Program-made: the position numbers and the translations under genes
Part shown: positions 1 to 17,198 of the stretch, piece by piece
How positions within the stretch are numbered: the first letter of the stretch is position 1
Layout: every line of letters starts with the position of its first letter
The notes under the pieces: generated by a model
Database searches by the model: none
Seen by the model: the letters and a program-made list of their open reading frames with translations, nothing else
Told to the model about the DNA's origin: nothing
NCBI GenBank assembly: GCA_026991575.1
Contig: JALXBF010000039.1
Span: forward strand, 54,965-74,964
DNA from: Planctomycetota bacterium
Lineage (GTDB): Bacteria; Planctomycetota; Planctomycetia; JALXBF01
Reading direction: 5' to 3'
Length of the DNA stretch: 20,000 nt

Positions 1-2
1 GT

Positions 3-110
3 GAGTTTGAGTTGACGGTGGACTTGAGTGGCCAGCGGTGGGTTAGGTTGGAGGCATGGGACGTGGCAGTCAACGGCGCGTTCACGCAGCCTGTTTGGTT
101 GGAACCGTAG
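3..110 (+). CDS. 3' end of an uncharacterised protein (5'-truncated by window edge)
   Basis: Manual translation, open from the window edge: EFELTVDLSGQRWVRLEAWDVAVNGAFTQPVWLEP* (TAG 108-110). It reads like a natural beta-rich C-terminus. Not in the ORF track because no start codon lies in the window. Confidence 0.65.
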   Translation, partial: EFELTVDLSGQRWVRLEAWDVAVNGAFTQPVWLEP

Positions 111-131
111 CGCGGGATGGTATCGATTCAG

Positions 132-215
132 TGCGAGAGGCGGGACTCGAACCCGCACGCCCGTGAGGGCACAGGATCCTAAATCCTGCGCGTCTGCCAG
201 TTCCGCCACTCTCGC
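132..215 (-). tRNA. tRNA-Leu (anticodon TAG), CCA not encoded
   Basis: Reverse complement GCGAGAG-TGGCGGAACTGGCAGACGCG-CAGGA-TT-TAG-GA-TCCTG-long variable arm TGCCCTCACGGGCGT-GCGGG-TTCGAGT-CCCGC-CTCTCGC-A. Acceptor, anticodon and T stems all pair, with a class II variable arm. Confidence 0.97.
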
Positions 216-237
216 ATACACGCCGCGGATCCACTCT

Positions 238-266
238 ATGCTTGGACCTACGCGCGGCACTGTCAA
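238..266 (-). promoter_or_regulatory. putative sigma70-type promoter of tRNA-Leu
   Basis: On the - strand, a perfect TTGACA (266-261), a 17-bp spacer, then a weak -10 AAGCAT (243-238), about 22 nt upstream of the tRNA 5' end. Confidence 0.5.
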
Positions 267-374
267 GCACAGGATACCGCCCACGGATAGAATCCGGCTC
301 TTGTGCGGGGAACCGAATGCTCCAGGGACCGCCCCAACGGGATGCTCACTTGGGTAGCCGGTCTGCTCACCGGC

Positions 375-410
375 TTGACGCCCTGGTCAACGCCGTTGGG
401 ATTTTAGAAT
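375..410 (+). promoter_or_regulatory. putative fwdDB promoter with palindromic operator
   Basis: TTGAC-N6-GTCAA (375-390) followed by TAGAAT (405-410, 5/6 match to -10), 35 nt before the fwdD ATG. Confidence 0.4.
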
Positions 411-445
411 GCAGTGATTCGTTTCGGGGCGCCAAGGGCAAACCA

Positions 446-808
446 ATGCCGGAGCGATTCGTGCTCATCGCCGGCCGCACGGCGCGGCAAGGGACGACGT
501 TGAACAAGTCGAAGCTGGCGGGGGAGTACCTGGAAGAAATCTCCACCGTGTACATTGCCCCCGAGGACGCAGAGCGCCTGGGGCTGCGCGACGGCCAGCG
601 GGTACGGCTGAGCAGTGACCACGGGTCCGTAGTGCTGCGGTGCCGCCGGGCGCGTAAGGACGAGCTGGCACCGGGAGTCTTGTTCCTGCCTTACGGCGAT
701 GCTTCCAGCCGACTAATGGGTGCCGACACTCACGGCACGGGTATGCCCGACAGCAAAGGGCTTGACGTCGTGCTCGAACCGCTTCCGGACACAACGTCGA
801 GGGGGTGA
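446..808 (+). CDS. fwdD: formylmethanofuran dehydrogenase subunit D (molybdopterin dinucleotide-binding domain)
   Basis: 120 aa from ATG 446. Motifs GRTxxQG, PEDAERLGLRDGQRVRLSS, GVLFLPYG and DTHGTGMPDSKG match the FwdD/FmdD pattern. Lies directly before fwdB. Confidence 0.88.
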   Translation: MPERFVLIAGRTARQGTTLNKSKLAGEYLEEISTVYIAPEDAERLGLRDGQRVRLSSDHGSVVLRCRRARKDELAPGVLFLPYGDASSRLMGADTHGTGMPDSKGLDVVLEPLPDTTSRG

Positions 809-809
809 T

Positions 810-2141
810 ATGTCCGCAGAGAACGGCCGCAAACTGGTCCGCGATGTGACCTGCACGTTTTGCGGGTGCGTTTGTGATGACATCGTGCTGGAGGTTGAGG
901 GCAACCGGATTGTCAAGGCGCGCAACGCGTGTGTGCTCGGCACAGCCTGGTTCCTGAACCACGCGCCCGCGACGCTGCCCGCATGCCGGATCGACGGCAA
1001 ACCGGCACCGCTGCAGGAGGGCATCCGGTTGGCCGCCGAGATCCTGGCCGAGGCGCGGTATCCGTTAATCTACGGGTTGAGCGACACGACCAGCGAAGCG
1101 CAGCGCGTCGCCTGTCGCCTAGCCGACCGCATCGGCGCCTGCCTCGACACGACCACCTCCGTGTGCCACGGTCCTAGCGGTATGGCCTTTCAGGGCGTAG
1201 GCGAAGTGACCTGCACGCTGGGCGAAATCAAGCACCGCGCGGACCTGGTCGTGTTCTGGGGGTGTAACCCGGCCGAGTCCCATCCGCGCCACTTCACGCG
1301 CTACTCGACCATGCCTCGAGGCTTCCTCGTACCGCGCGGACGGAAGGACCGTACGGTAGTCGTGGTTGACGTGCGCAAGACGAAGAGTGCCGCAGCGGCC
1401 GACATCTTCATCCGCATCCGTCCCAGGAGCGACTTCGAAGCGCTCTGGACGTTACGCGCTCTGGTGCGCGGCCGCCACGTGGACCCTGACGAAGTGACGC
1501 GCTTGACCGGCGTTTCGTTCGAAACATGGCGCGAGCTGGCCGAGCGCATGCGGACCTGTCGTTTTGGCGTGCTGCTGTTCGGAATGGGTCTGTCGATGAC
1601 GCGGGGCAAGCACTTGAACGTGGCCGCAGCGCTTGCGCTGGCCCGCGACCTCAACGAGCACGGCCGGTTCGCGGCCAAGCCGATGCGAGGCCACGGGAAT
1701 GTCACTGGTGCGGACAACGTCGTGGCCTGGCAGACCGGCTTTCCATTCGGTGTGGGCCTGAACCGGGGCTACCCGCGGTTCAACCCTGGGGAATTCACCG
1801 CAACCGATGTGCTCTGTCGGGGCGAAGCGGATGCTGCGCTGATCATCGCGGCCGACCCGGCGGCGAACTTCGCCGAACCGGCGCGGCAGCACCTGCGGCG
1901 CATTCCGGTGATTTCACTCGACCCGAAGGACACGCCAACGGCCCGCCTGGCCCGGGTCGCTTTCTGCACCGCCCCGTACGGGATCAGCACACCCGGCACG
2001 GTCTACCGCATGGACGATGTGCCCATCTACTTGAGGCCGGCACTGCCGTCACCGCATCCGAGTGACCAGCAGGTGCTTGAGCTCCTGGACCAGGCCGTCG
2101 CGGAGGCGCTGCTCCGCCGTACGGGCTCCCCCGTGCGCTAG
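810..2141 (+). CDS. fwdB: formylmethanofuran dehydrogenase subunit B (W/Mo-bisPGD, [4Fe-4S])
   Basis: ATG 810 after a GAGGGGGTG Shine-Dalgarno, 443 aa. Motifs CTFCGCVCDD...NAC, TTSVCHGPS, TCTLGEIKHRAD, WGCNPAESHPRH, PMRGHGNV, WQTGFPF and GTVYRMDDVP. Confidence 0.93.
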   Translation: MSAENGRKLVRDVTCTFCGCVCDDIVLEVEGNRIVKARNACVLGTAWFLNHAPATLPACRIDGKPAPLQEGIRLAAEILAEARYPLIYGLSDTTSEAQRVACRLADRIGACLDTTTSVCHGPSGMAFQGVGEVTCTLGEIKHRADLVVFWGCNPAESHPRHFTRYSTMPRGFLVPRGRKDRTVVVVDVRKTKSAAAADIFIRIRPRSDFEALWTLRALVRGRHVDPDEVTRLTGVSFETWRELAERMRTCRFGVLLFGMGLSMTRGKHLNVAAALALARDLNEHGRFAAKPMRGHGNVTGADNVVAWQTGFPFGVGLNRGYPRFNPGEFTATDVLCRGEADAALIIAADPAANFAEPARQHLRRIPVISLDPKDTPTARLARVAFCTAPYGISTPGTVYRMDDVPIYLRPALPSPHPSDQQVLELLDQAVAEALLRRTGSPVR

Positions 2142-2224
2142 TGTGGTCGCCAGCTGCAGGAAGGCGTTCCGCACGCGTAAGGTCAGCATGGTAACCTGGA
2201 GACGGCGTCCGGCTGACACTCCGC

Positions 2225-3916
2225 TCAGGCCCCTCCCCGCTCACCACAATCCGGCGGCCTGTTCTGCGCGTTCCTGCCCGGGTTGGGCATGTGGACGGCC
2301 GTCGGATGGCTATCAGGCCCCGGCACGGACCGCAGGCTCATGCGGTGCTGGCCTGAGCGTACGGCCTCTTCCACGGCGCGCACCAGCGAATTGGCACTGG
2401 CTGCATCCTGGACCTCGATCATCGACGGCCAGCACCGGAACGCTGCCTCAATGACGCGCGGATCCCACTGGCTACCGGCTCCTTCCGCGAAGATCTTACG
2501 AATCTGCTCCGGGTCGCGGCGGCGGCGGTAGGCTCGGTCACTGTACATTGCATCGAAGGCGTCTGCCACGGCCAGGATGCGTCCGTCCATGCTGATCTGC
2601 TCGCCGGCAACCCCGTCCGGATACCCTTTGCCGTCGTACCGCTCATGATGGTGTCGTACGGCCGGAATGAGCTGGCGGAACCAGCGGACCTGCTCCAGGA
2701 TCGCAACGCCGATCTCCACGTGCGACATGATGTGCTCACGCTCCTCAGGCGTCAGCGGCCCGGGTTTCTTCAGCACGGCGTCATCGATCCCGATTTTGCC
2801 GATATCGTGCAGCAGGCCGGCAAGGTACAGGTTTGAGCAGCGGGTGTCGTCCAGGCCCAGTTGCTGGCCCAGCAGAACCGCAAGCTTAGCGACTCGGTGA
2901 CTATGGCCACGGGTGTAGTCGTCCTTTGCGTCGATGGCTGCGGTCAGGGCGCGCATCAAGCCAAGGAGCAGCTCCTTGAACTGGCCGGACAACTGGCGAA
3001 ACTGCTGATCATTCGCTACGGCTGCTGCGACCGGACGGAGTGCTTCGGCAAGTTCGCGGGCTGTACCTTCGTCCAGCCACCGGCACATGGCTACCAACCA
3101 GCCGGGGGGCTTGGACTGGTTGCCGGCAACGATCAGGCACTGCGGCGCGATGCCGTAGCTGCGGCGTGCCTCGTCGACCGTAGCCAGCCAACATCCCGGC
3201 GCGAACGGGCGGAGACGTTTGATGGCCCGGCCGACCACCCGGCGGTACTCGGCCGGATCGAGTGCGACGGCCCCGGCGAGCACAGGCCGCTGCGCAGGCG
3301 CGGCGGGGATCCAGGCGAGCGAGTCCAGTTGGAGCGTTTCGCACAGACCGGCAAGCAAGCTGGCCACCACGCGGCTTCCGCCCCCCGCGGCCGCACGCCG
3401 CGAGCTGGAACCGTACAGGAGCGACAGCAGCGAGGGTAGTGTCGAGAGGATCAGGCCGTGGTTCGATTTGTCCTCAGAACCTTGCCCCGAACGCATCCGA
3501 TCCACAACCGCCTGCGCCCAGCGGCGCAGGACGGCCGCGCCGGTTTCGCTGTCCTGCGCGAGCAGTTTGCCGAGCATGGACGGAGCAGCAGTGCCGCCGG
3601 CCGCACTCACGATGCGCGCCACGGCCACGCCCCGTAGCTGCCCTCCTTGCCACACCGGCAAGGCCAGAGCCCACACGTCGCGGTCCACTTCCTCCAGTTG
3701 CGCCGCCTGGCGCTCGTGGGCCAACTCCACGAGCTCCAACGCTGTCAGTGGCAGCTCAAACGGCAAATGACCCGGCAAGACCGGCACCGGCACAAACACA
3801 AATGGCACGCCGAACTCACGGTACAGCTCATCGAAGAGGCGATTGGCACCGGTTTCCCCCGCCTTCGGCCCGTCCCACGGAACTGCGGGCCAGGTCGTGA
3901 ACATCGAACTCGACAT
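2225..3916 (-). CDS. HD-GYP domain cyclic dinucleotide phosphodiesterase with long N-terminal putative sensory region
   Basis: AIDAKDDYTRGHSHRVA, LLHDIGK, HHERYDGKGYPDG and ILAVADAFDAM.SDRAYR motifs in the C-terminal half. Confidence 0.92.
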   Translation of the reverse strand: MSSSMFTTWPAVPWDGPKAGETGANRLFDELYREFGVPFVFVPVPVLPGHLPFELPLTALELVELAHERQAAQLEEVDRDVWALALPVWQGGQLRGVAVARIVSAAGGTAAPSMLGKLLAQDSETGAAVLRRWAQAVVDRMRSGQGSEDKSNHGLILSTLPSLLSLLYGSSSRRAAAGGGSRVVASLLAGLCETLQLDSLAWIPAAPAQRPVLAGAVALDPAEYRRVVGRAIKRLRPFAPGCWLATVDEARRSYGIAPQCLIVAGNQSKPPGWLVAMCRWLDEGTARELAEALRPVAAAVANDQQFRQLSGQFKELLLGLMRALTAAIDAKDDYTRGHSHRVAKLAVLLGQQLGLDDTRCSNLYLAGLLHDIGKIGIDDAVLKKPGPLTPEEREHIMSHVEIGVAILEQVRWFRQLIPAVRHHHERYDGKGYPDGVAGEQISMDGRILAVADAFDAMYSDRAYRRRRDPEQIRKIFAEGAGSQWDPRVIEAAFRCWPSMIEVQDAASANSLVRAVEEAVRSGQHRMSLRSVPGPDSHPTAVHMPNPGRNAQNRPPDCGERGGA

Positions 3917-7100: not shown

Positions 7101-7227
7101 GGAACTCCTCACGCGCACCGCTTCAGAACCTGCTCCGCCACCCGACGTGCTGCATCCCGATGCAACGCAGCCAACTCGGCTGCAGCCCCTGCACCCGGCC
7201 GACCCGACCGTTCCAGCAGCTCAATGA
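4120..7227 (+). CDS. Hanks-type Ser/Thr protein kinase with one TM segment and C-terminal TPR repeats
   Basis: GKGAFGRV, VVVK, HRDVKPGN, DFN, GGTLPYMAPE and DIYSLGVVLYELLTG. Hydrophobic stretch ITLAGAIVTIGLAVIAVLGMALA at about 5578-5646. Multiple TPR-like units (AIPLFQRALQLDP, YLNRG..ALADLNHAI). Start uncertain: ATG 4120 chosen, ORF open from 3958. Confidence 0.92.
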   Translation: MSKGTKPESSAHSLQAGWPMDGGAVVPWLPEESDEQPEGTVPEPITLGGLFQMCSLSGEAVSAASVAAVPFDALDVGDELAGYRLILRLGKGAFGRVFLAEEQNLARRLVVVKVSQRQLDEPHALARLQHSHIVPIYSLHDDPITGLQAIVMPYLGGTTMDRILRTIGDPTRNTLSGRDLLRIVDGYTAAVYRRLQEVNHLPESSGAGQRDWRESFRSLASLVDIRSVTVSASSVDMASYLDDEDRPAQSGPARDWLGALVRKLRYDPVPLGDSPRAALSALCYERAVQWIGARLAEALYHAHSRGVLHRDVKPGNILIGQDGRPMLLDFNLAYVSSEQAQQRCIGGTLPYMAPEHLEAFARGDSGEGTVDERADIYSLGVVLYELLTGRCPFPTDRSASTRQRLQQLIESRRQLPPSVRSLNPRVSPAFAAIIQKCLQPDPADRYQSTAHLAEDLQRDLESLPLRYTAEPSLRYRAQKWCRRHPKITLAGAIVTIGLAVIAVLGMALASAGQRIARIDLAQQRARFARLFQQTQLLTYAAVGEPGSKAFQTAWRSCEEALQMVRDAGLVPAESLAKPEQVDEVFFMAALLTKARAGATHDAERRRQLYEQALRYLREARALNAPPSRASLLLAAELHTLLGNTTQATELRQQAEERPLSTAHDLAMEATRVAARRDFEQAIPLFQRALQLDPGNFWAAFGLAVCYQALGQVDEALAAYFAAANAWPECGWVYLNRGQLLANAGRYADALADLNHAIKLLSNVGLAYAARGSVLLRLRRYEQAAEDLRQAVALGPVDTRLLTAYGTALAWSGQIARALEVFERAATIQGAGDSVAIAAASALADRAPRTAMSWLDRALRGNPRNPQALYLRGYILAEKLDRPELAQLALEQCLKIKPHHTSALALAALLDARAGRDARARRRAELAEAMTATAADLYTLASCYARLAEREPRWKARCVELLRRAAAAGADLSRLRDDADFAHLWQDRVAARLLEELLTRTASEPAPPPDVLHPDATQPTRLQPLHPADPTVPAAQ

Positions 7228-8329
7228 CCACCTGGCCAAGCACGGCCGGTTCGATGCACCCCGGGGGCGCTTCGGAAACGATCGGCCAGCCTAACCGATC
7301 GGCAACGTAGCAGGCGTTCTGGCGTTGGTGATCATCCGCGGCGTGGGGGTATGGAATCAGGACACATGGCACCTGGCACACCGCCGCCTCAGCGATGGCC
7401 GACGCGCCGGCCCGCATGACGAGCAGATCGGCCATGCGATACAAGTCGTCCATCTCCGCCACATGGGGGACCACGCACGCCTCCAGCGCTCGGTCGGCAT
7501 ACATGCGCCGCACTGCAGGCCAGTGACGGACCCCGGTCTGGTGCACGATCCAGACCTGCCGATCCGCCAGCATCTCAGCCAGTTTGACAGTGGCGTGATT
7601 CAAGCTCTGAGCCCCCTGGCTCCCACCCACCGCGGCAACCACGCGGGGCGTCCCCTCGGGCCGCTCGGCCACGCGCCTCACAGCGGCAGCCCGCACGATC
7701 CGGTCGCGTACCGGGACCCCGGTCACCAGCGCCGGGCAGCGCGGGTTCATCCGCCGTAGCGTCTCGGGAGTACCCGCGCAGACCAGGTCGGCTAACGCCA
7801 GCAGACAGCGGTTGGCTCGGCCCGGGACTACGTTCGGTTCGAAAAGCACCACGTGCCAACCCAGGCTCCGCGCGGCCACAGCTGCCGGAACCGCAGCATA
7901 TCCGCCAAACGATACCAACACGCCTCTGCGCGCGAACCTGGTCAGCACGCCGCGGAGCCAGGCGAGGACGGCGGCCGAACCGGCCAGATAGCGGCCCAAC
8001 GCCCTAAGGCCGGTCTCCCGCTTCTGCATCGGCACCACACGCCGCTCGACCCCCTCGGGCAACTGGCCGCTCAAGTCGACACCTCTGTCACCGGTGGTAC
8101 CCAGCAACATGATGGGTAACTCAGGCGCCAGCCGGCGCAGCTGTTCAGCGAGCGCGACGGCCGGGTAGAAGTGTCCGCCGGTCCCGCCTGCGGCCAGCAC
8201 CACACCACAGCGTGCCCGCAGGGAACCCACCTCAACTGGTAATTGCCTCAGCTCCACGGTGCGCCTCCGTGCTGGTCCATTTCCCCCTCTCGCCTGGCAG
8301 CTTGTACCTTCTTGGCCAGTAATGCTCAA
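7109..8329 (-). CDS. murG: undecaprenyl-PP-MurNAc-pentapeptide GlcNAc transferase
   Basis: GGTGGH, FGGY, EPNVVPGRANR, GVPVR, GGSQGA, RAGASAIAE and PYPHAADDHQRQNA. The TTG start overlaps the ftsW stop, but the true start could be up to about 35 codons downstream. Confidence 0.95.
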   Translation of the reverse strand: MSITGQEGTSCQARGGNGPARRRTVELRQLPVEVGSLRARCGVVLAAGGTGGHFYPAVALAEQLRRLAPELPIMLLGTTGDRGVDLSGQLPEGVERRVVPMQKRETGLRALGRYLAGSAAVLAWLRGVLTRFARRGVLVSFGGYAAVPAAVAARSLGWHVVLFEPNVVPGRANRCLLALADLVCAGTPETLRRMNPRCPALVTGVPVRDRIVRAAAVRRVAERPEGTPRVVAAVGGSQGAQSLNHATVKLAEMLADRQVWIVHQTGVRHWPAVRRMYADRALEACVVPHVAEMDDLYRMADLLVMRAGASAIAEAAVCQVPCVLIPYPHAADDHQRQNACYVADRLGWPIVSEAPPGCIEPAVLGQVVIELLERSGRPGAGAAAELAALHRDAARRVAEQVLKRCA

Positions 8330-9510
8330 GCCGCCGCGCCGTCGGCCGACTCAAGGCTTCGGCAGCGGCTCAGGCCCAGAACCAGGCCTACGGCAAGCAG
8401 GCTGGCCGTCAGATTCGAACCGCCGTAGCTGATGAACGGCAGCCCGATGCCTTTCGGTGGCAGCAGCGCAAGCACGACGGCAATGTGAATGAGCGCCTGC
8501 AGCGTCAGGGCCAGGACAAGGCCGCGGACGGCCAGCTGACCGAAGGCCGTCGGTGCAGCTGCGGCCAGCAGCCAGCCGCTCCAGAGAAACGCAACCCAGC
8601 CGGCAATGATCAACAGGGCGCCGACCAGGCCGAGTTCCTCGCCGATGACCGCGAACACGTAGTCCGTGCTGGCTTCTGGCAAGAAACCGAGCTTCTGCCA
8701 GCCGGCACCCAGACCCGTGCCCCATAGGCCCCCTGAGACAAACGAAAGGATCGATTGCTTCACCTGGTAGGGCGCGTCGGCCAGATGGGACCACGCTTGC
8801 ACGAAGCCGACGATGCGCGCCATGCGGTACGGTTCGGCCAGAAGCGCCAGGACGGTCACAGCACCGCCTGCGATGCCCAGGGCAACCAGGTGCGTAACAG
8901 GCAACCCGCCAAGAAAGGCCACGGCCAAGGTCAGCACGGCGATCAGCAAGCCACCGCCGAAATCGGGTTCAGCCACCACCAGTGCGGCGGCAATGAGTCC
9001 CGGGCCCAGACAACCAAACGTATCGGGCCAGCGCCATCGGGGACCGTCGCCACCGCCTGTTGCCGTGACGGCCGCCGCTCGGCGGGCTGTGTAGAGGATC
9101 ACGGCCAGCCGGGCAAACTCGCTCCACTGTACCGTGATCGGCCCGAGCACGAACCAGCGGCGTGCCCCGTTGATCGGTCGCGTGACCCCTGGCATCAAGA
9201 GCACCGCCAGGCCGGCGACCGCCAACAGGTACGCTGCCGGTGCCACGCGTAGCCAGAACCGATCCGGCAGCCGCGCGGCCACTGCCGCAACGACCGTGCC
9301 GATGGTGGCGAACACCAGTTGGCGCACGAAGGCCTCCTGGTGTCTCAGGGTGGGTTGGGCCGTGATCGAACTGCCCGGGACGATAAGCAGTCCAAGGACG
9401 ACGAACAGTGCGGTGAGGAACGCGATCAGCACCGCGGCCGCCGGCGGCTCAGGCCGCAACGGCCGCACCACCTCGCCGCCTCGAACGGCTTGGAGCGCCG
9501 TGTCGGCCAT
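8326..9510 (-). CDS. ftsW: SEDS family peptidoglycan glycosyltransferase FtsW
   Basis: Polytopic membrane protein with GARRW, QWSEFAR, EPDFG, YQVKQS, LPEASTDYVFAVIGEELG and PPKGIGLPFISYGGS. Directly upstream of murG. ATG 9510 preferred over TTG 9633. Confidence 0.9.
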   Translation of the reverse strand: MADTALQAVRGGEVVRPLRPEPPAAAVLIAFLTALFVVLGLLIVPGSSITAQPTLRHQEAFVRQLVFATIGTVVAAVAARLPDRFWLRVAPAAYLLAVAGLAVLLMPGVTRPINGARRWFVLGPITVQWSEFARLAVILYTARRAAAVTATGGGDGPRWRWPDTFGCLGPGLIAAALVVAEPDFGGGLLIAVLTLAVAFLGGLPVTHLVALGIAGGAVTVLALLAEPYRMARIVGFVQAWSHLADAPYQVKQSILSFVSGGLWGTGLGAGWQKLGFLPEASTDYVFAVIGEELGLVGALLIIAGWVAFLWSGWLLAAAAPTAFGQLAVRGLVLALTLQALIHIAVVLALLPPKGIGLPFISYGGSNLTASLLAVGLVLGLSRCRSLESADGAAA

Positions 9511-9773
9511 TGTTTCGAACAAGGCCTCGTCTGAGAGAGCGTGACACGCAGGGCGGTGGCCAGCCGGAACAGCAAGTCGCGCGCGGCCTTGCAGAGCCGG
9601 CGCATGCTCCGGGCGGGGCCTTACCCTTAACAATCGGTACAGCCACGGTTATCCTTTAGTCTTGGGCATCCGGCGGCCGGATCGTCCGGCGCGGAGGCAC
9701 TGTCCCGTTCGGCATGCAACAAGAAGACGCACTGCGAGCGACCTGCGCGGGGGGCTCGAGGAGCGGCTACCGT

Positions 9774-10931
9774 ATGACTCCAGCTAGAATCACGTTGCCG
9801 CACGCCGAGACGTTCAAGCGGCTTGCGCTCGAGGTAGCAACCACCGCTGCGATCGTCATCGCCGCCTTCAGTAACATCTGGCCCCGCGGGCGCGATCTGA
9901 CGGCAGCCGTCCTGGGGCAGGACGTCGGCCCAAAGGGCAACGCCTTGTTTCGCGGTATCTTCGTAACCGTGCTGACACCGTTCACGGCCGAGGGAAACAT
10001 CGACGTGCGCGCCCTGGAAGCGCAGCTCCGCTACCTGGTCGACGCCGGCGTCCATGGACTGTTAGTGCTTGGCTCCATCGGCGAAGGGCCATACCTGACG
10101 GACGAACAACGTGAGCGTGTGTTGGAGGTCGTGCAGCGGGAAGTTGACGGCCGTCTGCCGGTCGTGGTCGGGATCACGGCAGCTTCGACCGCTCAAGCGA
10201 CCGCGCACGCGCTGCAAGCAGCACGGTACGGCGCCGATGCCCTGACGGTGGCGTTACCGGTTTACTACTCGGTCGATCTCAGCGCGCTGAAGCGTCATCT
10301 GCTGGCCGTTGCCCGCGCGTCTGGTTTGCCTGTGCTGTTCTACTACTACCCGGACGCCTACCGCGGCGTGCTGAAGCCCGCGCAGATCGCCGAACTGCTG
10401 CGTGAGCCGGAAATCATCGGCGTGAAGGAAAGCATTCTGGACATGGCCCACATTGAGCGGCAGATCGTGAAGGTGCGGGACCCGTCGAAAGTCTTTTGGG
10501 CTGGGACGACGCTGGCCATGCCCGAGGTCATGGAGCTGGGTGGCGACGGGGCTGCGTCGGTGGTCGGTCTGCTGATGCCGCGGACCGCTGTAGCCCTGTA
10601 CCGAGCGGTTCAGGCAGGCGACCGTGCCCAGGTCGAACGCCTCCGAGGCAAGCTGTTCCGTGCGTTACCGTTGCTGCAACGCAACGCGATGAATCCGCTG
10701 CTGGCTCATGCCGGCTTCCTCGCCGCGCTCCGCGGGCAGGTACCCTTAAACCTTGGTGCCGAAAGCACTCACGCCCGGCTCAAGGCGGCACTGCGCTATC
10801 GGGGAATCCCGATCGAACCGTACGTCGCAGCGCCTCTACCCCCCCTGACTGCCCACGAAGAACAACTGGTGCGCCGTACCATGGAGGAACTGCTCCGGCT
10901 CGAACCGAATGTGGAGAGCTCAGATGAGTGA
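9774..10931 (+). CDS. dihydrodipicolinate synthase / N-acetylneuraminate lyase family class I aldolase (probably not true DapA)
   Basis: FRGIFVTVLTPF, GSIGE, PVYY, FYYYP and Schiff-base GVKES. ATG 9774 has GAGGAG upstream. An alternative TTG start lies at 9945. Confidence 0.88.
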   Translation: MTPARITLPHAETFKRLALEVATTAAIVIAAFSNIWPRGRDLTAAVLGQDVGPKGNALFRGIFVTVLTPFTAEGNIDVRALEAQLRYLVDAGVHGLLVLGSIGEGPYLTDEQRERVLEVVQREVDGRLPVVVGITAASTAQATAHALQAARYGADALTVALPVYYSVDLSALKRHLLAVARASGLPVLFYYYPDAYRGVLKPAQIAELLREPEIIGVKESILDMAHIERQIVKVRDPSKVFWAGTTLAMPEVMELGGDGAASVVGLLMPRTAVALYRAVQAGDRAQVERLRGKLFRALPLLQRNAMNPLLAHAGFLAALRGQVPLNLGAESTHARLKAALRYRGIPIEPYVAAPLPPLTAHEEQLVRRTMEELLRLEPNVESSDE

Positions 10932-12099
10932 ATCGCCCCGGCGGCGGATCTACCTGGACTACAACGCCACCTGTCCGCTGGCCGACCCGGTGCGGGAAGC
11001 GATCCAGGCCGCCGCGGAAGGCCCTTTCGGTAACCCATCAAGTACACACTGGGCCGGGCAAGAGGCCCGAGCTGCTCTAACGGAAGCGCGACGCCAGCTG
11101 GCCTTGCTGCTGGGCGCCACCGAGCAAGAGATCGTCTTCACCAGCGGCGGCAGTGAAGCGAACAACTTTGCGATCAAAGGGATCTTCTGGCGTGCGGCCC
11201 AGCGCTTCCGGCACCCGCATTTCGTAACCAGCGCCATTGAACATCCGGCCGTACACGCTCCTCTTGGCTTCCTGCAGCGGCTGGGCGCCGAGGTTACCTT
11301 TGTGCCGGTGGACCGCTTCGGGCAAGTCGACCCGGACGACGTCCGCCGAGCACTCCGGCCACAGACCGTGCTGGTCACGATCATGCACGCCAACAACGAA
11401 GTGGGCACCTTGCAGCCGATTGCCGAAATTGCTCGCATCTGTCGCGAACATGACGTGTGCTTCCACACGGATGCCGCCCAATCGGTGGGGAAAACCACGG
11501 TCGACGTAGCCCGGCTCGGCTGTGACCTGCTATCGCTGGCCGGTCACAAGTTCTACGCGCCCAAAGGGGTCGGCGCACTGTACGTGCGTGAGGGGGTTGA
11601 GCTGGAGCCGCTGGTGCACGGGGCCGGTCACGAGCGCGGCCGTCGCGCGGGCACGGAAAACCTCCTGTTGGACGTGGCCCTTGGAGCAGCCGCCGAGCTG
11701 GCCCGTACCGATCCGGCCGAAGCACACCTGAAGAGCCTGGCCGACCGCTTGCTTGAGCGCCTCCACGAGTTGCTTGATGATGCGGTGGTGCTCAACGGCC
11801 ATCCCACGGAGCGTATCCCGAACACGGTCAACGTTAGCTTCTTGGGAGTAAGCGGCCGTGAGTTGTTGGAGCGGGTACCGGACGTTGCCGCTTCCACCGG
11901 CTCGGCCTGCCACGAGCGCGGTGGGGCCGTCTCACACGTGCTGGCGGCCATGGGCCTGGACCGCGCCCGACAGTTGGGCGCCGTACGGCTCAGCGTCGGT
12001 CGAATGACCACGCAAGATGAGGTGGATGAAGCCGCCGAATTGCTGGCGACTGCGTATCGGCATCTGACCGGGCGTTCCACAGAGAGCGTATCGGTGTGA
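10924..12099 (+). CDS. group I (IscS/NifS-like) PLP-dependent cysteine desulfurase
   Basis: IYLDYNAT, GNPSS, FTSGGSEANN, EHPAV, HANNEVG, HTDAAQ, GHKFYAPKG (PLP Lys), RAGTEN and STGSAC (catalytic Cys). Overlaps the upstream gene by 8 nt. Confidence 0.93.
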   Translation: MSESPRRRIYLDYNATCPLADPVREAIQAAAEGPFGNPSSTHWAGQEARAALTEARRQLALLLGATEQEIVFTSGGSEANNFAIKGIFWRAAQRFRHPHFVTSAIEHPAVHAPLGFLQRLGAEVTFVPVDRFGQVDPDDVRRALRPQTVLVTIMHANNEVGTLQPIAEIARICREHDVCFHTDAAQSVGKTTVDVARLGCDLLSLAGHKFYAPKGVGALYVREGVELEPLVHGAGHERGRRAGTENLLLDVALGAAAELARTDPAEAHLKSLADRLLERLHELLDDAVVLNGHPTERIPNTVNVSFLGVSGRELLERVPDVAASTGSACHERGGAVSHVLAAMGLDRARQLGAVRLSVGRMTTQDEVDEAAELLATAYRHLTGRSTESVSV

Positions 12100-13049
12100 G
12101 TTGTGGAGTTGCGGTGGTGAAGGTAACCAAGCGTTTTGTCTTCGAGCAGGCACCTTTCCGCGAGTGCCATGCGTCGACGATCGTCCAGGTCGCGCCCAAC
12201 CGGTTCCTGTGTGCGTTCTTCGCCGGGGCGCGTGAGGGTGCGCGGGATGTGGCCATCTGGCTGGCCGAGTACGAGAACGGCGCGTGGCGCGGTCTGCGCA
12301 AGGTGGCCGAAGAGCGGGGTATCCCGTGCTGGAATCCGGTGCTGTTTCGCTACGGTCCAGCAATCTGGCTCTTCTACAAGGTCGGCCCCAGTCCGCAGAC
12401 CTGGAGTGGCTACTACAAGAAGTCGACCGACGGCGGACAGAGCTGGTCTCCGCCCGAGCTGCTGCCCGCCGGACTACTCGGGCCGATCAAGAACAAACCT
12501 CTCGTGCTCGCAGACGGCACTATCCTGGCCGGCAGCTCCGTGGAAAGCTACAACACGTGGGCCGTCTGGGTGGAACGCTCCGAGGACGGCATGAAGAGCT
12601 GGCAGAAGCTGGGACCGATCTACGACCCGGAGGAACTGTACGGCGTGATCCAACCCACGATCTGGATCGTGGAGGGCAACCATCTGCGCATGGCCATGCG
12701 CGCGACGCGGCGCATCGGAGTCGTCTGCATGGCAGACAGCTTCGACGGCGGCCGAACGTGGACCACAGCCAGACGCACGCAGATCCCTCACCCCAGCAGC
12801 GGGCTGGACGCCGTGCGGTTGCAAGACGGTCGTGTCTTGCTGGTACACAACCCGACGCGCACCGGCCGCAGTCCGCTGATCGTGTCCGTCTCCGACGACG
12901 GCGGCAACCGCTGGCGTCCATGGCTGACGCTGGAGGATGAACCGGGCGAGTACTCGTACCCCGGGATCATTGAGGCCGACGACGGTTCGGTGCACATCGT
13001 CTACACCTGGCGCCGCCGCCGCATCCGGCACGCCGTGCTGGAACCATAA
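12096..13049 (+). CDS. BNR/Asp-box beta-propeller protein (sialidase-like fold)
   Basis: Four Asp boxes (STDGGQSW, SEDGMKSW, SFDGGRTW, SDDGGNRW), plus CHASTI, WNPVLF, GPIKNKP and EYSYP. GTGA overlap with the upstream stop. No signal peptide seen. Confidence 0.88.
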   Translation: MSCGVAVVKVTKRFVFEQAPFRECHASTIVQVAPNRFLCAFFAGAREGARDVAIWLAEYENGAWRGLRKVAEERGIPCWNPVLFRYGPAIWLFYKVGPSPQTWSGYYKKSTDGGQSWSPPELLPAGLLGPIKNKPLVLADGTILAGSSVESYNTWAVWVERSEDGMKSWQKLGPIYDPEELYGVIQPTIWIVEGNHLRMAMRATRRIGVVCMADSFDGGRTWTTARRTQIPHPSSGLDAVRLQDGRVLLVHNPTRTGRSPLIVSVSDDGGNRWRPWLTLEDEPGEYSYPGIIEADDGSVHIVYTWRRRRIRHAVLEP

Positions 13050-13122
13050 TCACCACGCGTCCGGCCGGCAGATTTTTCCGGGCAATGAAAGAGCGGGCTG
13101 GTCCCGCTGGCGCAGGTCGGCG

Positions 13123-13191
13123 TTGACAATTGAGGGCAAAGGGCATGAAGTGGGTCGGGCAACCAAGGAACGGACAGGGAAGTCTTGAGGT
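13123..13191 (+). promoter_or_regulatory. putative murE promoter and ribosome-binding site
   Basis: TTGACA at 13123-13128, weak -10 TGAAGT at 17-bp spacing (13146-13151), and SD GAGGT at 13187-13191 before ATG 13197. Confidence 0.4.
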
Positions 13192-13196
13192 AAGCG

Positions 13197-14708
13197 ATGG
13201 ACCTACTGCGCCTGGACGGCACGCATGCCGTGTCGCTGCGTCGGCTGTTTCCGCGGTGCCGACTCAGCGGAGCCGATGAGCTGATCGTACGTTCGCTGGC
13301 GATCGACTCGCGCCAGCTCCAAGCCGGCGACCTCTTCGTGGCCATTCCCGGCTGCCGTTGCGACGGCCATCGGCATGTGCACGACGCGGTCCGTCGCGGG
13401 GCATCTGCTGTGCTGGCCTGTCGGCCGCTGGCAGGGCTCCCGGTACCAGTCGCCCAGGTGGCTGACATACGCCGTGCGTTGGCTGAACTCTGTTGGGCTC
13501 TGGTGGGCAACCCGCAGCGCCGTCTGAAGCTAGCCGGCATCACGGGCACGAACGGCAAGACCACCACGGCCTATCTGCTCCATGCGATCCTCAGCCAGCG
13601 CGGCCCTGCAGGCCTAAGCGGCACGATCGTTCGCCATGATGGCACGCATTATCGACCGGCCGGGCTGACCACCCCGCCCCCCACCGCCCTGGCGGACCTG
13701 TTGGCAGCCATGGTCGAGCACGGCTGTTGGGCAGCGGCCATGGAGGTCTCCAGTCATGCACTGGCTCAGCACCGCTGCAGCGGACTGAACTTCCATGTGG
13801 CCGTCTTCCTGAACCTCGCTCACGACCACCTTGACTATCACGGCGACTGGGAAGCGTACGCTGCGGCAAAACGGCAGCTTTTCGAGGAACTCCACCCCCA
13901 GGGCCGCGCGATCGCGTGGGCATCCGATCCGCGGACAGATCAGGTGACCGGACCAGCATCGGACCGCCGATGGCTGTTCGGCCTGGACGGGATCGGCGAC
14001 GTCGGCGGGACGATTGCGAGCATGGATCGTACGGGCACCGTTCTTCGGCTGGATCTGCCGACCGGAGCGGTCACCTGCCACCTGCGGCTCATCGGCCGCC
14101 ACAATGCGCTCAACGCGGTGGCTGCTGCAGCGGCCGCTGCAGCACTGGGCTGCGACCTGCCGGAAATCAAGCGTGGCCTGGAGCAGGTGCACTGCGTGCC
14201 CGGGCGGCTGGAGCGGGTCAGCCCGGCGGGCGGACCGGATGTCTACGTAGACTACGCGCACACTCCCGACGCCCTGGCCACGGCCCTTACCGCCCTGCGC
14301 GAGGCCATGGGCCGCAGCGGTCGACTGATCGTCGTCTTCGGCGCCGGCGGTGATCGCGATCGCAGCAAGCGCCCGAAGATGGGAGCCGTGGCGACTCGGT
14401 TCGCCGACGTGGTCATTCTTACCGACGACAACCCCCGCACCGAAGACCCCGCCCTGATCATCGGTGACATCCTCCGTGGCTGCCGCGACCGCGATGCGGT
14501 CGTTGTCCAAAGGGACCGAGCCTGTGCCATTGAGCTGGCGCTGGAACTGGCCAGACCCCACGACGTGGTCCTCATCGCAGGCAAAGGCCACGAGCAGTAC
14601 CAGATCGTCGGCACCCAACGGTTGCCATTCGATGACCGCGAGGTAGTACACGAGTGGTTCAGACGGCACGTGTGGGCCAGATGGCGTGCGGAGCAAGCGA
14701 CAGCGTGA
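13197..14708 (+). CDS. murE: UDP-MurNAc-L-Ala-D-Glu:meso-DAP ligase
   Basis: DSR, GITGTNGKTTT, LTTP, MEVSSHAL, DHLDYH, PGRLE, VDYAHTPDAL, FGAGGDRD, DNPR and AGKGHE. Confidence 0.97.
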   Translation: MDLLRLDGTHAVSLRRLFPRCRLSGADELIVRSLAIDSRQLQAGDLFVAIPGCRCDGHRHVHDAVRRGASAVLACRPLAGLPVPVAQVADIRRALAELCWALVGNPQRRLKLAGITGTNGKTTTAYLLHAILSQRGPAGLSGTIVRHDGTHYRPAGLTTPPPTALADLLAAMVEHGCWAAAMEVSSHALAQHRCSGLNFHVAVFLNLAHDHLDYHGDWEAYAAAKRQLFEELHPQGRAIAWASDPRTDQVTGPASDRRWLFGLDGIGDVGGTIASMDRTGTVLRLDLPTGAVTCHLRLIGRHNALNAVAAAAAAAALGCDLPEIKRGLEQVHCVPGRLERVSPAGGPDVYVDYAHTPDALATALTALREAMGRSGRLIVVFGAGGDRDRSKRPKMGAVATRFADVVILTDDNPRTEDPALIIGDILRGCRDRDAVVVQRDRACAIELALELARPHDVVLIAGKGHEQYQIVGTQRLPFDDREVVHEWFRRHVWARWRAEQATA

Positions 14709-16096
14709 GCGGGATCTGGCTGCAGCGGCTGGCACAGGTGGTGGACGCCGTCTGGTCCGGACCCACGCCTGAGACGCCATTGGCTGCGGGGGTCTGCATC
14801 GATTCCCGCACGCTGCAGCGTGGCGAGCTGTTCTGGGCTTTGCCAGGGACGCGTACCGACGGGCATCGGTTCGTTACGGACGCAGCCACCCGGGGCGCCG
14901 TGGCCGCGGTCGTCTCCCGTCCGCTGGAGCACAGCCCGGCCCCGCTGCTGGTGGTCCCCGACACAGTAGCTGCCCTGGCCAGGGCCGCCGCATGGTACCG
15001 TTCCTGTCTAAGCGCCACCGTGATCGGCATCACCGGTTCGGCCGGCAAAACAACCACCAAGCAGATGCTCGCCACGGTGCTGGCCGGTGAGCTTGCCGTA
15101 CATGCCACGCCCGGGAACCAGAACAACCTGCTCGGGTTGCCGCTAACCATCTTGAACACCCCGCGAGCCACGGAAATGCTCGTCCTGGAACACGGCACCA
15201 GCGAGCCAGGCGAGATCCGTTCGTTGGCTGCCATCAGCAGACCGCACTGGGCTGTGTTGACCACAATCGGAGCCGCTCACCTTGCCGGCCTTGGCTCCAT
15301 TGAAGGTGTGCTTCGTGAGAAGCTCGACCTGGTGCGTACCCTGCCGCGTGATGGTCTGGCGTTCGTGAACGCCGACTGTGAGCACCTGGCCAAACTGCGC
15401 GACCGGAGGATGCACTGCCGGATCGTCTGGTACGGTTTCGGCCACATGGCTCGCCTCCTCGGACCGCGAGCTACGTGGCGTACGACCAGCGACGGCTCGG
15501 AGCTGGTCGTGGACGGCGATTGCTTCCGGTTGCCGGTTCAGGGGCGACCGTTTGCTTACGCGGCCCTGGTGGCCGTGCTCGTTGCCCGGGAACTGGGCCT
15601 GAGCCGGCAGGCGATTGCCAACGGGCTTGCTGCGTTCCGCCCGCTGAGTGGTCGCCTCCGTGTGGTGGATGCCGGTCCAGCGCGGATTATCGACGATAGC
15701 TACAACGCGAACCCGGTCTCGCTAGAGGCCTGCGTGGAGCTGCTCGACGAGCTCGCTCGCCGACACGGCCGGCACCGGGTGCTGGTGCTCGGGGACATGC
15801 TCGAACTGGGCCCCGACGCCGAACGCGAACACCGACGACAGGGCACACGCCTGGCGGAGAAGCTTGACGTTGTCATCGCCGTTGGTGAACTGGCCGAAGC
15901 ATTCGCCACCGCGGCCGCCGCGGCGAACCCGTCCTGCCGGAGGGTGCGAGCACGCGACGCGGAGCAAGCCGCTACCGCCTGTCTTCCGCTGCTTGCCTCT
16001 GCCGTGATCGCAGTGAAAGGGTCCAGGGCGATGCGGCTGGATCAGACCGTGGCCGCGCTCCTTCGGCGCGCCGGTCCCACGATCCGGGTGGCCTAG
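14705..16096 (+). CDS. murF: UDP-MurNAc-tripeptide:D-Ala-D-Ala ligase
   Basis: GTGA overlap with the murE stop. DSR, GITGSAGKTTTK, NNLLGLPLT, GEI, IDDSYNANP, LGDMLELG and KGSR. Confidence 0.95.
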   Translation: MSGIWLQRLAQVVDAVWSGPTPETPLAAGVCIDSRTLQRGELFWALPGTRTDGHRFVTDAATRGAVAAVVSRPLEHSPAPLLVVPDTVAALARAAAWYRSCLSATVIGITGSAGKTTTKQMLATVLAGELAVHATPGNQNNLLGLPLTILNTPRATEMLVLEHGTSEPGEIRSLAAISRPHWAVLTTIGAAHLAGLGSIEGVLREKLDLVRTLPRDGLAFVNADCEHLAKLRDRRMHCRIVWYGFGHMARLLGPRATWRTTSDGSELVVDGDCFRLPVQGRPFAYAALVAVLVARELGLSRQAIANGLAAFRPLSGRLRVVDAGPARIIDDSYNANPVSLEACVELLDELARRHGRHRVLVLGDMLELGPDAEREHRRQGTRLAEKLDVVIAVGELAEAFATAAAAANPSCRRVRARDAEQAATACLPLLASAVIAVKGSRAMRLDQTVAALLRRAGPTIRVA

Positions 16097-16100
16097 CGAC

Positions 16101-17198
16101 ATGTTGCTCGCCGTCGTCCGAGCGATCGAGTGGTTCGTAGGGGGCAGTGCTGCTCAGGCCAGCCTGCTCGATTCGATCACATTCCGCGCCGCTGCTGCCG
16201 CGGTGCTGGCTTTCGTGCTATCGCTGGTATGTGGCCCCCGTGCCATCGCATGGTTGGGAAGACGCTTCTGCGAACCGATCATAACCCCCTCGTCAACGCT
16301 GAGAGCGCTGCACCAGGCCAAGCAGGGGACGCCCACGATGGGCGGCCTGTTGATCCTGGCAACTAGCCTGGCCAGCGTGCTGCTCTGGTCCGATCTGACG
16401 AACCCCCTGCTGCTTGCCGGCACGGTGTACTACGCAGCGCTGGGTGTGGTCGGCGTAATTGACGATTGGCGCAAGGCGACGGGTCATCGGAAGCGCGGGC
16501 TAGAGGAGTGGGAGAAGCTGGCTGCCGAGGCGGTGCTCAGCGGTCTTGTTCTCCTTTTTCTCTATGTCATAGGGCGGCCCGCTGGCTGGCAGCCCGTGCT
16601 CTACGTTCCGGTGGTTGACGTCGCCTGGCCGCTGGGCATCCTGGGCGTTCCGTGGTTCCTGGTGGTGATGCTCGGAGCGACCAACGCCGTGAACCTGACC
16701 GACGGGCTCGATGGCCTTGCGGCAGGCTGCTATGTGTTCGCGGGCGGTGCGGTCGGAGTGGTTGTGTACATCGCCGGCCATGCCGTGCTGGCCGAACACT
16801 TCGGCATGCTCCACGTGCCGGCTGCCGGGGAGGTGACGGTCCTGGTGGGAGCAGCCGTGGGGGCAAGTCTCGGGTTCCTATGGTTCAACTGCCATCCCGC
16901 CCAGGTGTTCATGGGCGATACCGGAGCGCTGGCACTGGGCGGGCTGCTTGCGTACGCCGCCGTGGTGGCCCACCAGGAACTGCTCATGGCCCTGGCCTGC
17001 GGCGTGTACGTGGCCGAGGCCGTCAGTGTGCTGTTGCAACGTGCGTACTTCCGCCGCACCGGCCGACGGCTCTTTCGCTGCGCGCCACTTCATCATCACT
17101 TCCAGTTCCTTGGCTGGCCGGAGAACCGCATCGTGGTGCGTTTCTGGATTGTGGCGGCCATCTGTGCGCTGGCAGCCACGGCCGTGTTACGGCTCTGA
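16101..17198 (+). CDS. mraY: phospho-N-acetylmuramoyl-pentapeptide transferase
   Basis: KQGTPTMGG, IDD, NAVNLTDGLDGL, FLWFNCHPAQVFMGDTG and APLHHHF. Polytopic membrane protein following murF. Confidence 0.97.
   Translation: MLLAVVRAIEWFVGGSAAQASLLDSITFRAAAAAVLAFVLSLVCGPRAIAWLGRRFCEPIITPSSTLRALHQAKQGTPTMGGLLILATSLASVLLWSDLTNPLLLAGTVYYAALGVVGVIDDWRKATGHRKRGLEEWEKLAAEAVLSGLVLLFLYVIGRPAGWQPVLYVPVVDVAWPLGILGVPWFLVVMLGATNAVNLTDGLDGLAAGCYVFAGGAVGVVVYIAGHAVLAEHFGMLHVPAAGEVTVLVGAAVGASLGFLWFNCHPAQVFMGDTGALALGGLLAYAAVVAHQELLMALACGVYVAEAVSVLLQRAYFRRTGRRLFRCAPLHHHFQFLGWPENRIVVRFWIVAAICALAATAVLRL

Follow-up and report, generated by a model that had tools for sequence, protein, structure and literature searches.

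The only bacterial member of the formylmethanofuran dehydrogenase family studied biochemically is the Fhc complex of Methylorubrum extorquens, which is metal-free and releases formate. According to the excerpted text of Hemmann et al. 2019 (PMC6926001), Cys118, His119 and Arg288 are the catalytic residues of the archaeal enzyme and are missing in FhcB, which has Ser62 in place of Cys118 and lacks His119, Arg288 and the N-terminal iron-sulfur domain, and the Fhc complex has no FwdD. A 2024 review of the family covers, in its available sections, the archaeal enzymes and Fhc only (PMC11656701), and our literature search, which did not extend to supplements, returned no work in which a catalytic-type Fwd from a bacterium had been studied biochemically. 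Here, we analysed a stretch of 20,000 nucleotides (the window, C39:54965-74964) from a planctomycete assembly of 4.96 Mb in 191 contigs that is 97.8% complete. The window carries an fwdD-fwdB gene pair (fwdDB), which probably encodes the redox part of a formyl-methanofuran dehydrogenase in this bacterium, with CO2 as the product of formyl-group oxidation.

Bacterial genes of this kind have been reported before. The most relevant prior report is Kim et al. 2016 (PLoS One, PMC4807772), which, in the portion available, describes fmdB of Rhodopirellula as a selenoprotein encoded in an fmdD-fmdB-fmdA-fmdC operon, finds the operon also in Ca. Methylomirabilis oxyfera, and records that some organisms hold both selenocysteine (Sec) and cysteine forms of fmdB. 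The excerpts of Wells et al. 2023 (PMC10100899) count 149 bacterial FwdB proteins and propose their transfer from Archaea, and those of Merino et al. 2020 (PMC7325909) describe an actinobacterial (Hakuba) fwdDBA-ftr-fwdC cluster in which the Fe-S domain and Cys118 are present and which 'could be active'. Two printed statements would be corrected if the planctomycete type is active: that fwdD 'is not present in' Planctomycetes (passage in PMC5020050) and that bacterial FwdB representatives are absent (passage in PMC7331816). The first-pass annotation of the window allowed that similar genes may already be annotated in other bacteria, which is correct and understated, the type being common in Planctomycetia and described from Rhodopirellula in 2016 (PMC4807772, as excerpted). 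Close homologs that carry a source name have the annotation 'formylmethanofuran dehydrogenase subunit B' (in one case 'tungsten-containing formylmethanofuran dehydrogenase 2 subunit B') and come from metagenome-assembled genomes (MAGs) of Gemmatales, Gemmataceae, Pirellulales and Pirellulaceae. The gain from this particular window is small, the gene type being widespread and having been both annotated and described before.

The features listed in the first-pass annotation, namely the [4Fe-4S] cysteines of FwdB, Cys119-His120, Arg293/His295 and a separate upstream FwdD, were all borne out by direct reading. A scripted read located C15, C18, C22, C41, C119, H120, R293 and H295, with the strings TTSVCHGPSG and KPMRGHGNVT. 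A single nucleotide separates the fwdD stop codon (TGA, 806-808) from the fwdB ATG at 810, a spacing that suggests translational coupling of the two genes. FwdB matched NCBIfam TIGR03129 with 496.3 bits (cut-off 327.8) over profile positions 2-418 of 421. No Pfam family was assigned to it at the default E-value; Pfam alone would miss FwdB, because PF00384 appeared only at E 0.0016. FwdD matched Pfam PF01568 (E 9.1e-16, 58.3 bits against a threshold of 26.8), and its best Protein Data Bank (PDB) matches were FwdD chains (8rja_D, E 1.8e-19; 5t5i_D, E 1.7e-11). The best PDB matches of FwdB were all archaeal catalytic subunits (5t5i_B, E 9.5e-117; 8rja_B, 1.8e-116; then 9sfi_Q, 9sw6_J and 7bkb_H), whereas M. 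extorquens FhcB (6s6y_B) was recovered at E 7.3e-15 only.

In the phmmer alignment to 5t5i_B, C119, H120 and R293 fall on Cys118, His119 and Arg288. An AlphaFold2 model of FwdB built from a 16-sequence alignment reached a mean predicted local distance difference test score (pLDDT) of 81.1. In Foldseek comparisons, the model gave template-modelling (TM) scores of 0.79/0.81 to 5t5i_B, 0.78-0.81 over 8rja_B and 5t5i_B, and 0.59/0.71 to 6s6y_B. Judged by the traits of the FhcB type (no Fe-S domain, a serine ligand, unconserved His and Arg, no FwdD), the window protein is the opposite on all four. The contrast on which the first-pass annotation was built, between the methanogen Fwd/Fmd active site and a degenerate FhcB without FwdD, agrees with the excerpts of Hemmann et al. 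2019 (PMC6926001).

To place the protein more widely, 185,579 species genomes were scanned with the patterns MRGH[GYF]N.. and ..CHG[PA]. The scan yielded at least 603 stretches, 600 of them confirmed, and the best 80 loci were analysed. Most of these 80 come from Planctomycetota MAGs, with 62-71% identity to the window FwdB. Small numbers bear the labels Methylomirabilota/Rokubacteria, Actinomycetota, Chloroflexota, Clostridia, Gemmatimonadota or Proteobacteria, and Bathyarchaeia account for three (50-52%); some of the odd taxon labels may be binning errors. C15, C18, C22 and C41 are invariant in 16/16 aligned complete FwdBs and in 80/80 related loci, where the Cys-His and Arg-x-His motifs are conserved by construction, as search patterns, and the four Fe-S cysteines are not. 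The conservation of the FwdB motifs is, as judged from these alignments, far beyond chance. An FwdD gene lies upstream on the same strand in 66/80 loci (35-68% identity to the window FwdD); none was seen in 13, and the remaining locus lacks DNA on its upstream side.

Within Planctomycetota, two types of FwdB can be distinguished. TIGR03129 matches at E <= 1e-30 were counted in a phylum sample of 301 genomes and found in 23. A strong stand-alone FwdD (E ~1e-22 or better) occurs in 10/301, and the same 10 genomes have an FwdB of at least 490 bits; at E <= 0.001 the FwdD profile matched in 135/301 genomes, mostly to domain IV of larger molybdoenzymes. For alignment, 17 FwdB homologs were cut from 14 relatives. 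Type 1, comprising six relatives and the window, keeps CxxCxxxC...C, TSVCHGPS and PMRGHGNVTG. Type 2 is 42-49% identical to the window FwdB (one member 39%); it keeps the N-terminal cysteines and carries MR(I/V/L/H)(P/S/Y)GD in place of MRGHGN, and Cys-His is often kept, the ligand Cys being gone in some members (KGH, TSH). Loci L024, L029, L034, L032, L026, L021 and L033 are examples of type 2. Three more divergent homologs keep the N-terminal motif only. All eight key residues are kept in every type-1 sequence of 17 genomes and in 79/80 related loci. Both types occur in four relatives, and the host genome has type 1 only. The type-2 paralog may, from its motifs, represent a half-degenerate state between Fwd and Fhc.

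The association of type 1 with FwdD was also seen in a class sample of 201 genomes. An FwdB-family match at E <= 1e-30 was present in 174, of which 101 were over the cut-off. With the type-1 line set at 468 bits, which is our own cut and not a sharp one (a fused case stands at 454 bits), there were 57 FwdB matches at or above it. FwdD was also found in 56/57 of these genomes, the exception having fwdB at a contig start, and in 3 of the remaining 144, one of them fused (596-aa frame) and two with a weak or partial FwdB match only. By hand comparison of coordinates, FwdD is on the fwdB strand, no more than ~1 kb upstream, in ~44/59 FwdD-bearing class genomes. A hand count of the type-1 class genomes gave 31/57 without a second FwdB-family match and 26 with one. 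The class sample includes closed genomes that carry type-1 fwdDB, in the Cys as well as the Sec form.

Two trees, both unrooted, were inferred. The FastTree alignment had 144 rows, made up of 126 representatives at 50% identity (at least 395 aa) and 18 window or relative sequences. All rows with both Cys-His and Arg-x-His fell in one 27-row clade (support 99), and the type-2 rows lay elsewhere; most representatives keep the N-terminal cysteines without these two motifs. The IQ-TREE run, a quick analysis of 69 rows picked by hand from the larger set under LG+C20 with posterior mean site frequencies (PMSF), was supported by the Shimodaira-Hasegawa-like approximate likelihood ratio test (SH-aLRT) only. 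Proteobacterial FhcB is not in this tree, none being among the top 150 representatives. The window FwdB was placed in a 16-row type-1 clade (97) nested in a 38-row clade (95). The latter also holds complete bacterial forms from Chloroflexota, Clostridia and Actinomycetota and of the Sec type, and an archaeal clade of 12 rows (99), where the Bathyarchaeia loci stand together with representatives that match 7bkb_H, 5t5i_B and 9sfi_Q best in the PDB. The type-2 sequences of planctomycetes lie apart in a clade of 15 rows (99). The first-pass annotation had named clustering with degenerate FhcB as an outcome that would speak against it; in these trees, in the PDB scores and in Foldseek, the protein instead groups with catalytic archaeal FwdB/FmdB.

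Some relatives of the window protein appear to be selenoproteins. A single in-frame TGA is present in 20/57 of the class-sample matches of at least 468 bits and in four of the phylum sample, and in 7/7 Sec-type loci examined it is the ligand codon (TSL*HGP). These proteins are 55-58% identical to the window FwdB, and their genes are ordered fwdD-fwdB-fwdA-fwdC with ftr beside. In all seven (L136-L141, L031), a conserved hairpin GCCGCCC-AGUU-GGGYGGC begins 21 nt past the UGA and is a candidate bacterial selenocysteine insertion sequence (SECIS). Support for selenocysteine comes chiefly from where the codon lies, because the single-sequence fold was not significant (z -1.13) and the 7-sequence hairpin alignment contained no compensatory pair, only G-C/G-U changes. 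To our knowledge, selenocysteine is retained only where a redox site is functional. Its presence at the metal ligand speaks for catalytic activity of the clade, a suggestion that would carry to the Cys-type window protein by homology only.

Further genes of the pathway and of cofactor synthesis lie elsewhere in the host genome. Of those named in the first-pass annotation, fwdA, fwdC, ftr, mch, mtd, moaA, moeA, a mobA-like gene and modA were found. Single matches were obtained for fwdA (contig C6, 723 bits, cut-off 392.75) and for fwdC (contig C34, 280 bits, cut-off 130.65), which adjoins the single ftr. The single mch is on contig C60, and single fae and mtd (Mpt_N dehydrogenase) genes are adjacent on C36, all above curated cut-offs. 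No second FwdB-family gene was found in the host genome, the other TIGR03129 matches being NapA and a formate dehydrogenase; type 1 is thus the only possible B subunit in this host. Profile searches also gave moaA (375.7 bits), three moeA genes, modA (127.4 bits), NapA (1053 bits, beside Rieske- and cytochrome-b-like genes) and an FdsA-type (NAD-type) formate dehydrogenase (768 bits, beside a NuoE/F-like protein). Synthesis of the bis(pyranopterin guanine dinucleotide) cofactor (bis-PGD) must work in the host, because moaA, three moeA, modA, the mobA-like gene, NapA and FdsA are present; a genome lacking this synthesis, an outcome the first-pass annotation had set against its proposal, is therefore not what these genes and the six AOR-family genes described below indicate.

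On C34, moeA, a moeA/PBP fusion, ftr and fwdC form one operon-like block in which genes abut or overlap. The order moeA-moeA/PBP-ftr is repeated on one contig in the only other same-family genome searched, and in the sister family (2 genomes) the moeA pair is kept with ftr on a different contig. Three points specific to this genome are modest: type 1 is the sole B subunit, fwdDB is detached from fwdA and ftr-fwdC, and two moeA genes are co-operonic with ftr-fwdC. Other genes flank the pathway genes. A pteridine-reductase-like short-chain dehydrogenase/reductase (SDR; C60:19874-20725, minus strand; NF006598 179.8 bits, cut-off 288) adjoins mch (C60:20732-21742). Dihydromethanopterin reductase (Afp/DmrA) is, in the excerpts of Chistoserdova 2016, unrecognised in Planctomycetes, and the SDR is, from its position and profile match, a candidate non-homologous substitute. 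An AIR-synthase-related protein with weak methanogenesis-marker-2 and HypE/ThiL likeness (C6:7675-8793, minus strand) lies divergently one gene upstream of fwdA, and a 245-aa open reading frame (ORF) without family (C6:12005-12742, plus strand) begins 3 nt after fwdA; these two are possible unrecognised pathway or cofactor genes.

Clustering of 640 neighbouring ORFs across the 80 loci recovered FwdA in 46, where it follows FwdB, Ftr in 18 and FwdC in 14. An AOR-family protein is found in 25 loci (e.g., L065, L072, L073, L091 and L116), mostly directly upstream of fwdD, a MobA-like protein in seven and MoeA in four. The AOR gene (AFOR_N plus AFOR_C) has a MoaD-like ORF ahead of it in 13 loci. 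This ORF of ~97 aa ends in GG and had no Pfam hit in these 13/80 loci; we take it to be MoaD-like from its length and GG end. The host genome itself has six AOR-family (AFOR_C) matches, on contigs C133, C28, C76, C105, C130 and C31, one directly upstream of the mobA-like gene. AOR-family enzymes are usually tungsten enzymes, and the AOR genes near fwdDB of relatives together with the six in the host hint that Planctomycetia, presumably aerobic, use tungsten-type pterin enzymes widely. An assignment of tungsten to FwdB from the linked AOR genes and the two clustered moeA genes was considered and rejected as decisive.

In the mechanism that we propose, FwdB, capped by FwdD, would bind tungsten- or molybdenum-bis(pyranopterin guanine dinucleotide) through Cys119 and hold one [4Fe-4S] cluster. 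FwdBD would work with the single FwdA (an amidohydrolase), FwdC and Ftr, presumably as a complex with these unlinked subunits, and would close tetrahydromethanopterin (H4MPT)-linked formaldehyde oxidation (Fae, Mtd, Mch, Ftr). The formyl group would pass from H4MPT to a methanofuran-type carrier, FwdA would release formate, and FwdBD would oxidise formate to CO2, this direction being the expected one; two electrons would leave through the Fe-S cluster to an acceptor, for which ferredoxin is a guess. An active FwdBD is favoured because all residues that define the catalytic enzyme and are absent from FhcB are present, because FwdD and type-1 FwdB co-occur in the class genomes, and because the window FwdB shares the 38-row clade with archaeal forms, apart from type 2. 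It is favoured also because the Sec-type relatives carry TGA at the ligand codon and because cofactor genes are linked, as the moeA pair with ftr-fwdC in the host and as AOR, MoaD-like, MobA-like and MoeA genes near relatives. The gene order of the relatives, with ftr beside, favours a single complex. Of the first-pass proposal of a redox-active tungsten/molybdenum enzyme, cofactor competence and probable redox activity are well supported by comparison (motifs, tree, cofactor genes and Sec relatives).

Several observations weigh against this proposal. The fwdDB pair on C39 is unlinked to fwdA (C6) and ftr-fwdC (C34); because of this, the assembly of FwdBD, FwdA and FwdC into one complex rests on the relatives. 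The window FwdD scored 69.5 bits against NCBIfam NF042908, an 'exception'-type model of tungsten-dependent FwdD, under its cut-off of 175, and it is, by sequence, an FwdD-like cap domain that is not a member under NCBI's strict rule. The FwdB model has low confidence at the active-site loops, residues 116-133 and 296-312. The mobA-like gene, at 100 bits, is under its cut-off of 151.85, which only E. coli among 14 control genomes passes. The ferredoxin motif CxxCxxCxxxC[P/A/G] was found in no ORF of the window and in 4/80 related loci, and no FwdF/FwdG-like or other ferredoxin gene is near fwdDB in the window, no genome-wide search having been made. A scan of window positions 1-2400 gave no consensus promoter or terminator. 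Furthermore, formate from an Fhc-like hydrolytic complex could be oxidised by the NAD-type formate dehydrogenase without FwdBD.

FwdBD could instead act on its own as a small formate dehydrogenase, or CO2 reductase, apart from FwdA, FwdC and Ftr and with free rather than tunnelled formate as its substrate. The pair stands alone in the window among unrelated neighbours (tRNA-Leu and an HD-GYP-type protein), fwdD and fwdB are on different contigs in 3/7 type-1 relatives first examined, and the fold and active site of FwdB are those of formate dehydrogenases. We consider this unlikely. Scattered operons are usual in planctomycetes, many relatives have fwdD-fwdB-fwdA-fwdC as one operon, FwdA follows FwdB in 46/80 related loci, and the host carries fwdA, fwdC, ftr and fwdB in a single copy each. 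In both solved complexes, moreover, the B subunit is built into the A/C assembly as a structural component (PMC6926001, as excerpted).

It is quite improbable, in our judgement, that FwdB is a cofactor-less scaffold like FhcB with relic motifs, in a complex that hydrolyses the formyl-carrier to formate for oxidation by FdsA. The only characterised bacterial complex, M. extorquens FhcABCD, works in this way (PMC6926001, as excerpted), the host has the required FdsA-type enzyme, and type-2 paralogs show active-site decay within the phylum. Such a scaffold is difficult to reconcile with the retention of all eight key residues here and in every type-1 sequence examined (17 genomes; 79/80 loci), the near-perfect co-occurrence of FwdD with type 1, the Sec variants, the linked cofactor genes and the weak similarity to FhcB. 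More improbable still is a reductive direction as in methanogens, in which CO2 would be fixed onto the furan carrier and one-carbon (C1) units passed to H4MPT for assimilation. The archaeal homologs are reversible and run reductively (excerpts of PMC11656701), and an active Fwd-like complex has been considered for a Wood-Ljungdahl actinobacterium (Merino et al., PMC7325909, as excerpted). Reduction would, however, need donors near -530 mV (excerpts of PMC11656701), and no bifurcating or polyferredoxin module is linked to fwdDB. The enzyme is paired with fae and mtd, the formaldehyde-oxidation entry; mer, mtr and CODH/ACS were not searched for.

If the planctomycete type is active, as the oxidative FwdBD reading holds, bacteria also oxidise the carrier-bound formyl group directly to CO2 with a tungsten/molybdenum enzyme. 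Models of C1 flux and electron balance would change for a phylum widespread in water and soil, and an aerobically grown, genetically approachable source would be gained of an enzyme of interest for CO2 capture. A broader reading, which we put forward tentatively and regard as somewhat doubtful, is that Planctomycetia keep, often in one genome, a working Fwd-type B subunit (with FwdD, Cys or Sec) alongside an Fhc-like paralog in a half-decayed condition (the Fe-S cysteines and in many cases Cys-His still there, the MRGH His lost), so that intermediates of the change from Fwd to Fhc would survive in this phylum. In lineages with type 1 only, such as the present one, an O2-exposed, possibly tungsten-dependent formyl-methanofuran dehydrogenase with an unlinked acceptor would then be the one route by which H4MPT-bound C1 units leave as CO2, and it could also replace the formate dehydrogenase reported missing in some marine Planctomycetota. 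In the excerpts of a Gulf of Mexico study (PMC9874027), the H4MPT genes of Planctomycetota MAGs, two of which are our loci L094 and L125, recruit RNA reads, and no formate dehydrogenase was found in those Planctomycetota.

The coordinates of fwdDB, its motifs and the associated features are collected in Table 1. The other window genes encode a Ser/Thr kinase with TPR repeats, murG, ftsW, a DHDPS-family gene, a class-V aminotransferase, a BNR-repeat protein, murE, murF, mraY and cmk. The presence of murE, murF, mraY, murG and ftsW supports the first-pass statement that the host makes peptidoglycan. These cell-wall genes (7109-17198) are split, ftsW and murG being read from the minus strand and murE, murF and mraY from the plus strand; the DHDPS-family, class-V aminotransferase and BNR-repeat genes lie between the two groups, and there is no single dcw operon.

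Table 1. Coordinates of fwdDB, neighbouring window features and the ftr-fwdC block of the host genome (window positions unless contig C34 is given)
Feature	Position	Strand	Description
fwdD	446..808	+	ATG 446 to TGA 808, 120 aa; molybdopterin-dinucleotide-binding cap-domain protein (formate dehydrogenase domain IV as separate subunit)
fwdB	810..2141	+	ATG 810 to TAG 2141, 443 aa; 'type 1' catalytic-type formylmethanofuran dehydrogenase subunit B
Shine-Dalgarno-like run GAGGGGG	797..803	+	within the fwdD 3' end, 6 nt ahead of the fwdB ATG (direct read)
[4Fe-4S] motif codons C15-x2-C18-x3-C22...C41	852..932	+	N-terminal in fwdB
TGC CAC (Cys119-His120)	1164..1169	+	aligns with tungsten ligand Cys118 and His119 of M. 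wolfeii FwdB; TGA replaces the Cys codon in Sec-type relatives
CGA GGC CAC (Arg293-Gly-His295, MRGH)	1686..1694	+	Arg293 aligns with Arg288 of M. wolfeii FwdB; His gone in type-2 paralogs
tRNA-Leu	131-215	opposite to fwdDB	upstream of fwdD
HD-domain (HD-GYP-type) protein	2225-3916	convergent with fwdB	downstream
644-aa ORF	18063-19997	-	reaches the window end; no Pfam or NCBIfam match
moeA (412 aa)	C34:9486-10724	same as ftr-fwdC	abuts/overlaps neighbour
MoeA/PBP_like fusion (678 aa)	C34:7487-9523	same as ftr-fwdC	NF011068 776 bits; Pfam PBP_like E 2.3e-53
ftr	C34:6553-7479	same as moeA pair	
fwdC	C34:5724-6548	same as ftr	

Compared with the tungsten FwdABCDFG complex of Methanothermobacter wolfeii (PDB 5T5I; related archaeal complexes 8RJA, 7BKB, 9SFI and 9SW6), the window FwdB aligns over its whole length, has retained the Fe-S cysteines as well as the counterparts of Cys118, His119 and Arg288, and has the same predicted fold. 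A separate FwdD cap is present, and FwdA and FwdC are encoded in the planctomycete genome. The two systems differ in that the planctomycete is a bacterium and probably aerobic, its genes are spread over three contigs, the expected direction is oxidative, and fwdDB is not linked to an FwdF/FwdG polyferredoxin or to any other electron module. With FhcABCD of M. extorquens (PDB 6S6Y, PMC6926001) it shares the position at the end of H4MPT-linked formaldehyde oxidation and homologous A, B, C and Ftr/FhcD subunits. Unlike FhcB, which has none of these, the window FwdB has the Fe-S domain, the Cys ligand, the His and Arg residues and an accompanying FwdD.

Among bacteria, the Hakuba actinobacteria (PMC7325909) and the 149 counted FwdB proteins (PMC10100899) share with the window, as far as the excerpts describe them, the N-terminal Fe-S domain and the catalytic Cys; they are without fwdE/F/G and were suggested to be active, and Actinomycetota and Chloroflexota sequences stand in the same 38-row clade. 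The Hakuba genes belong to another phylum and sub-clade and form one operon in a Wood-Ljungdahl context (PMC7325909, as excerpted). The fmdD-fmdB(Sec)-fmdA-fmdC operon of Rhodopirellula sp. P2 (PMC4807772) comes from the same phylum and has, in the excerpted description, the same catalytic-type D-B pair; the two fmdB forms of that report correspond to our types 1 and 2, and the same Sec operons were found here in seven relatives. Kim et al. framed the gene, in the text available, as a selenoprotein and a case of horizontal gene transfer and not as an enzymological question. The window differs from the Rhodopirellula operon in that its protein is the Cys form, its fwdDB pair is detached from fwdA and fwdC, and its host has no second fmdB.

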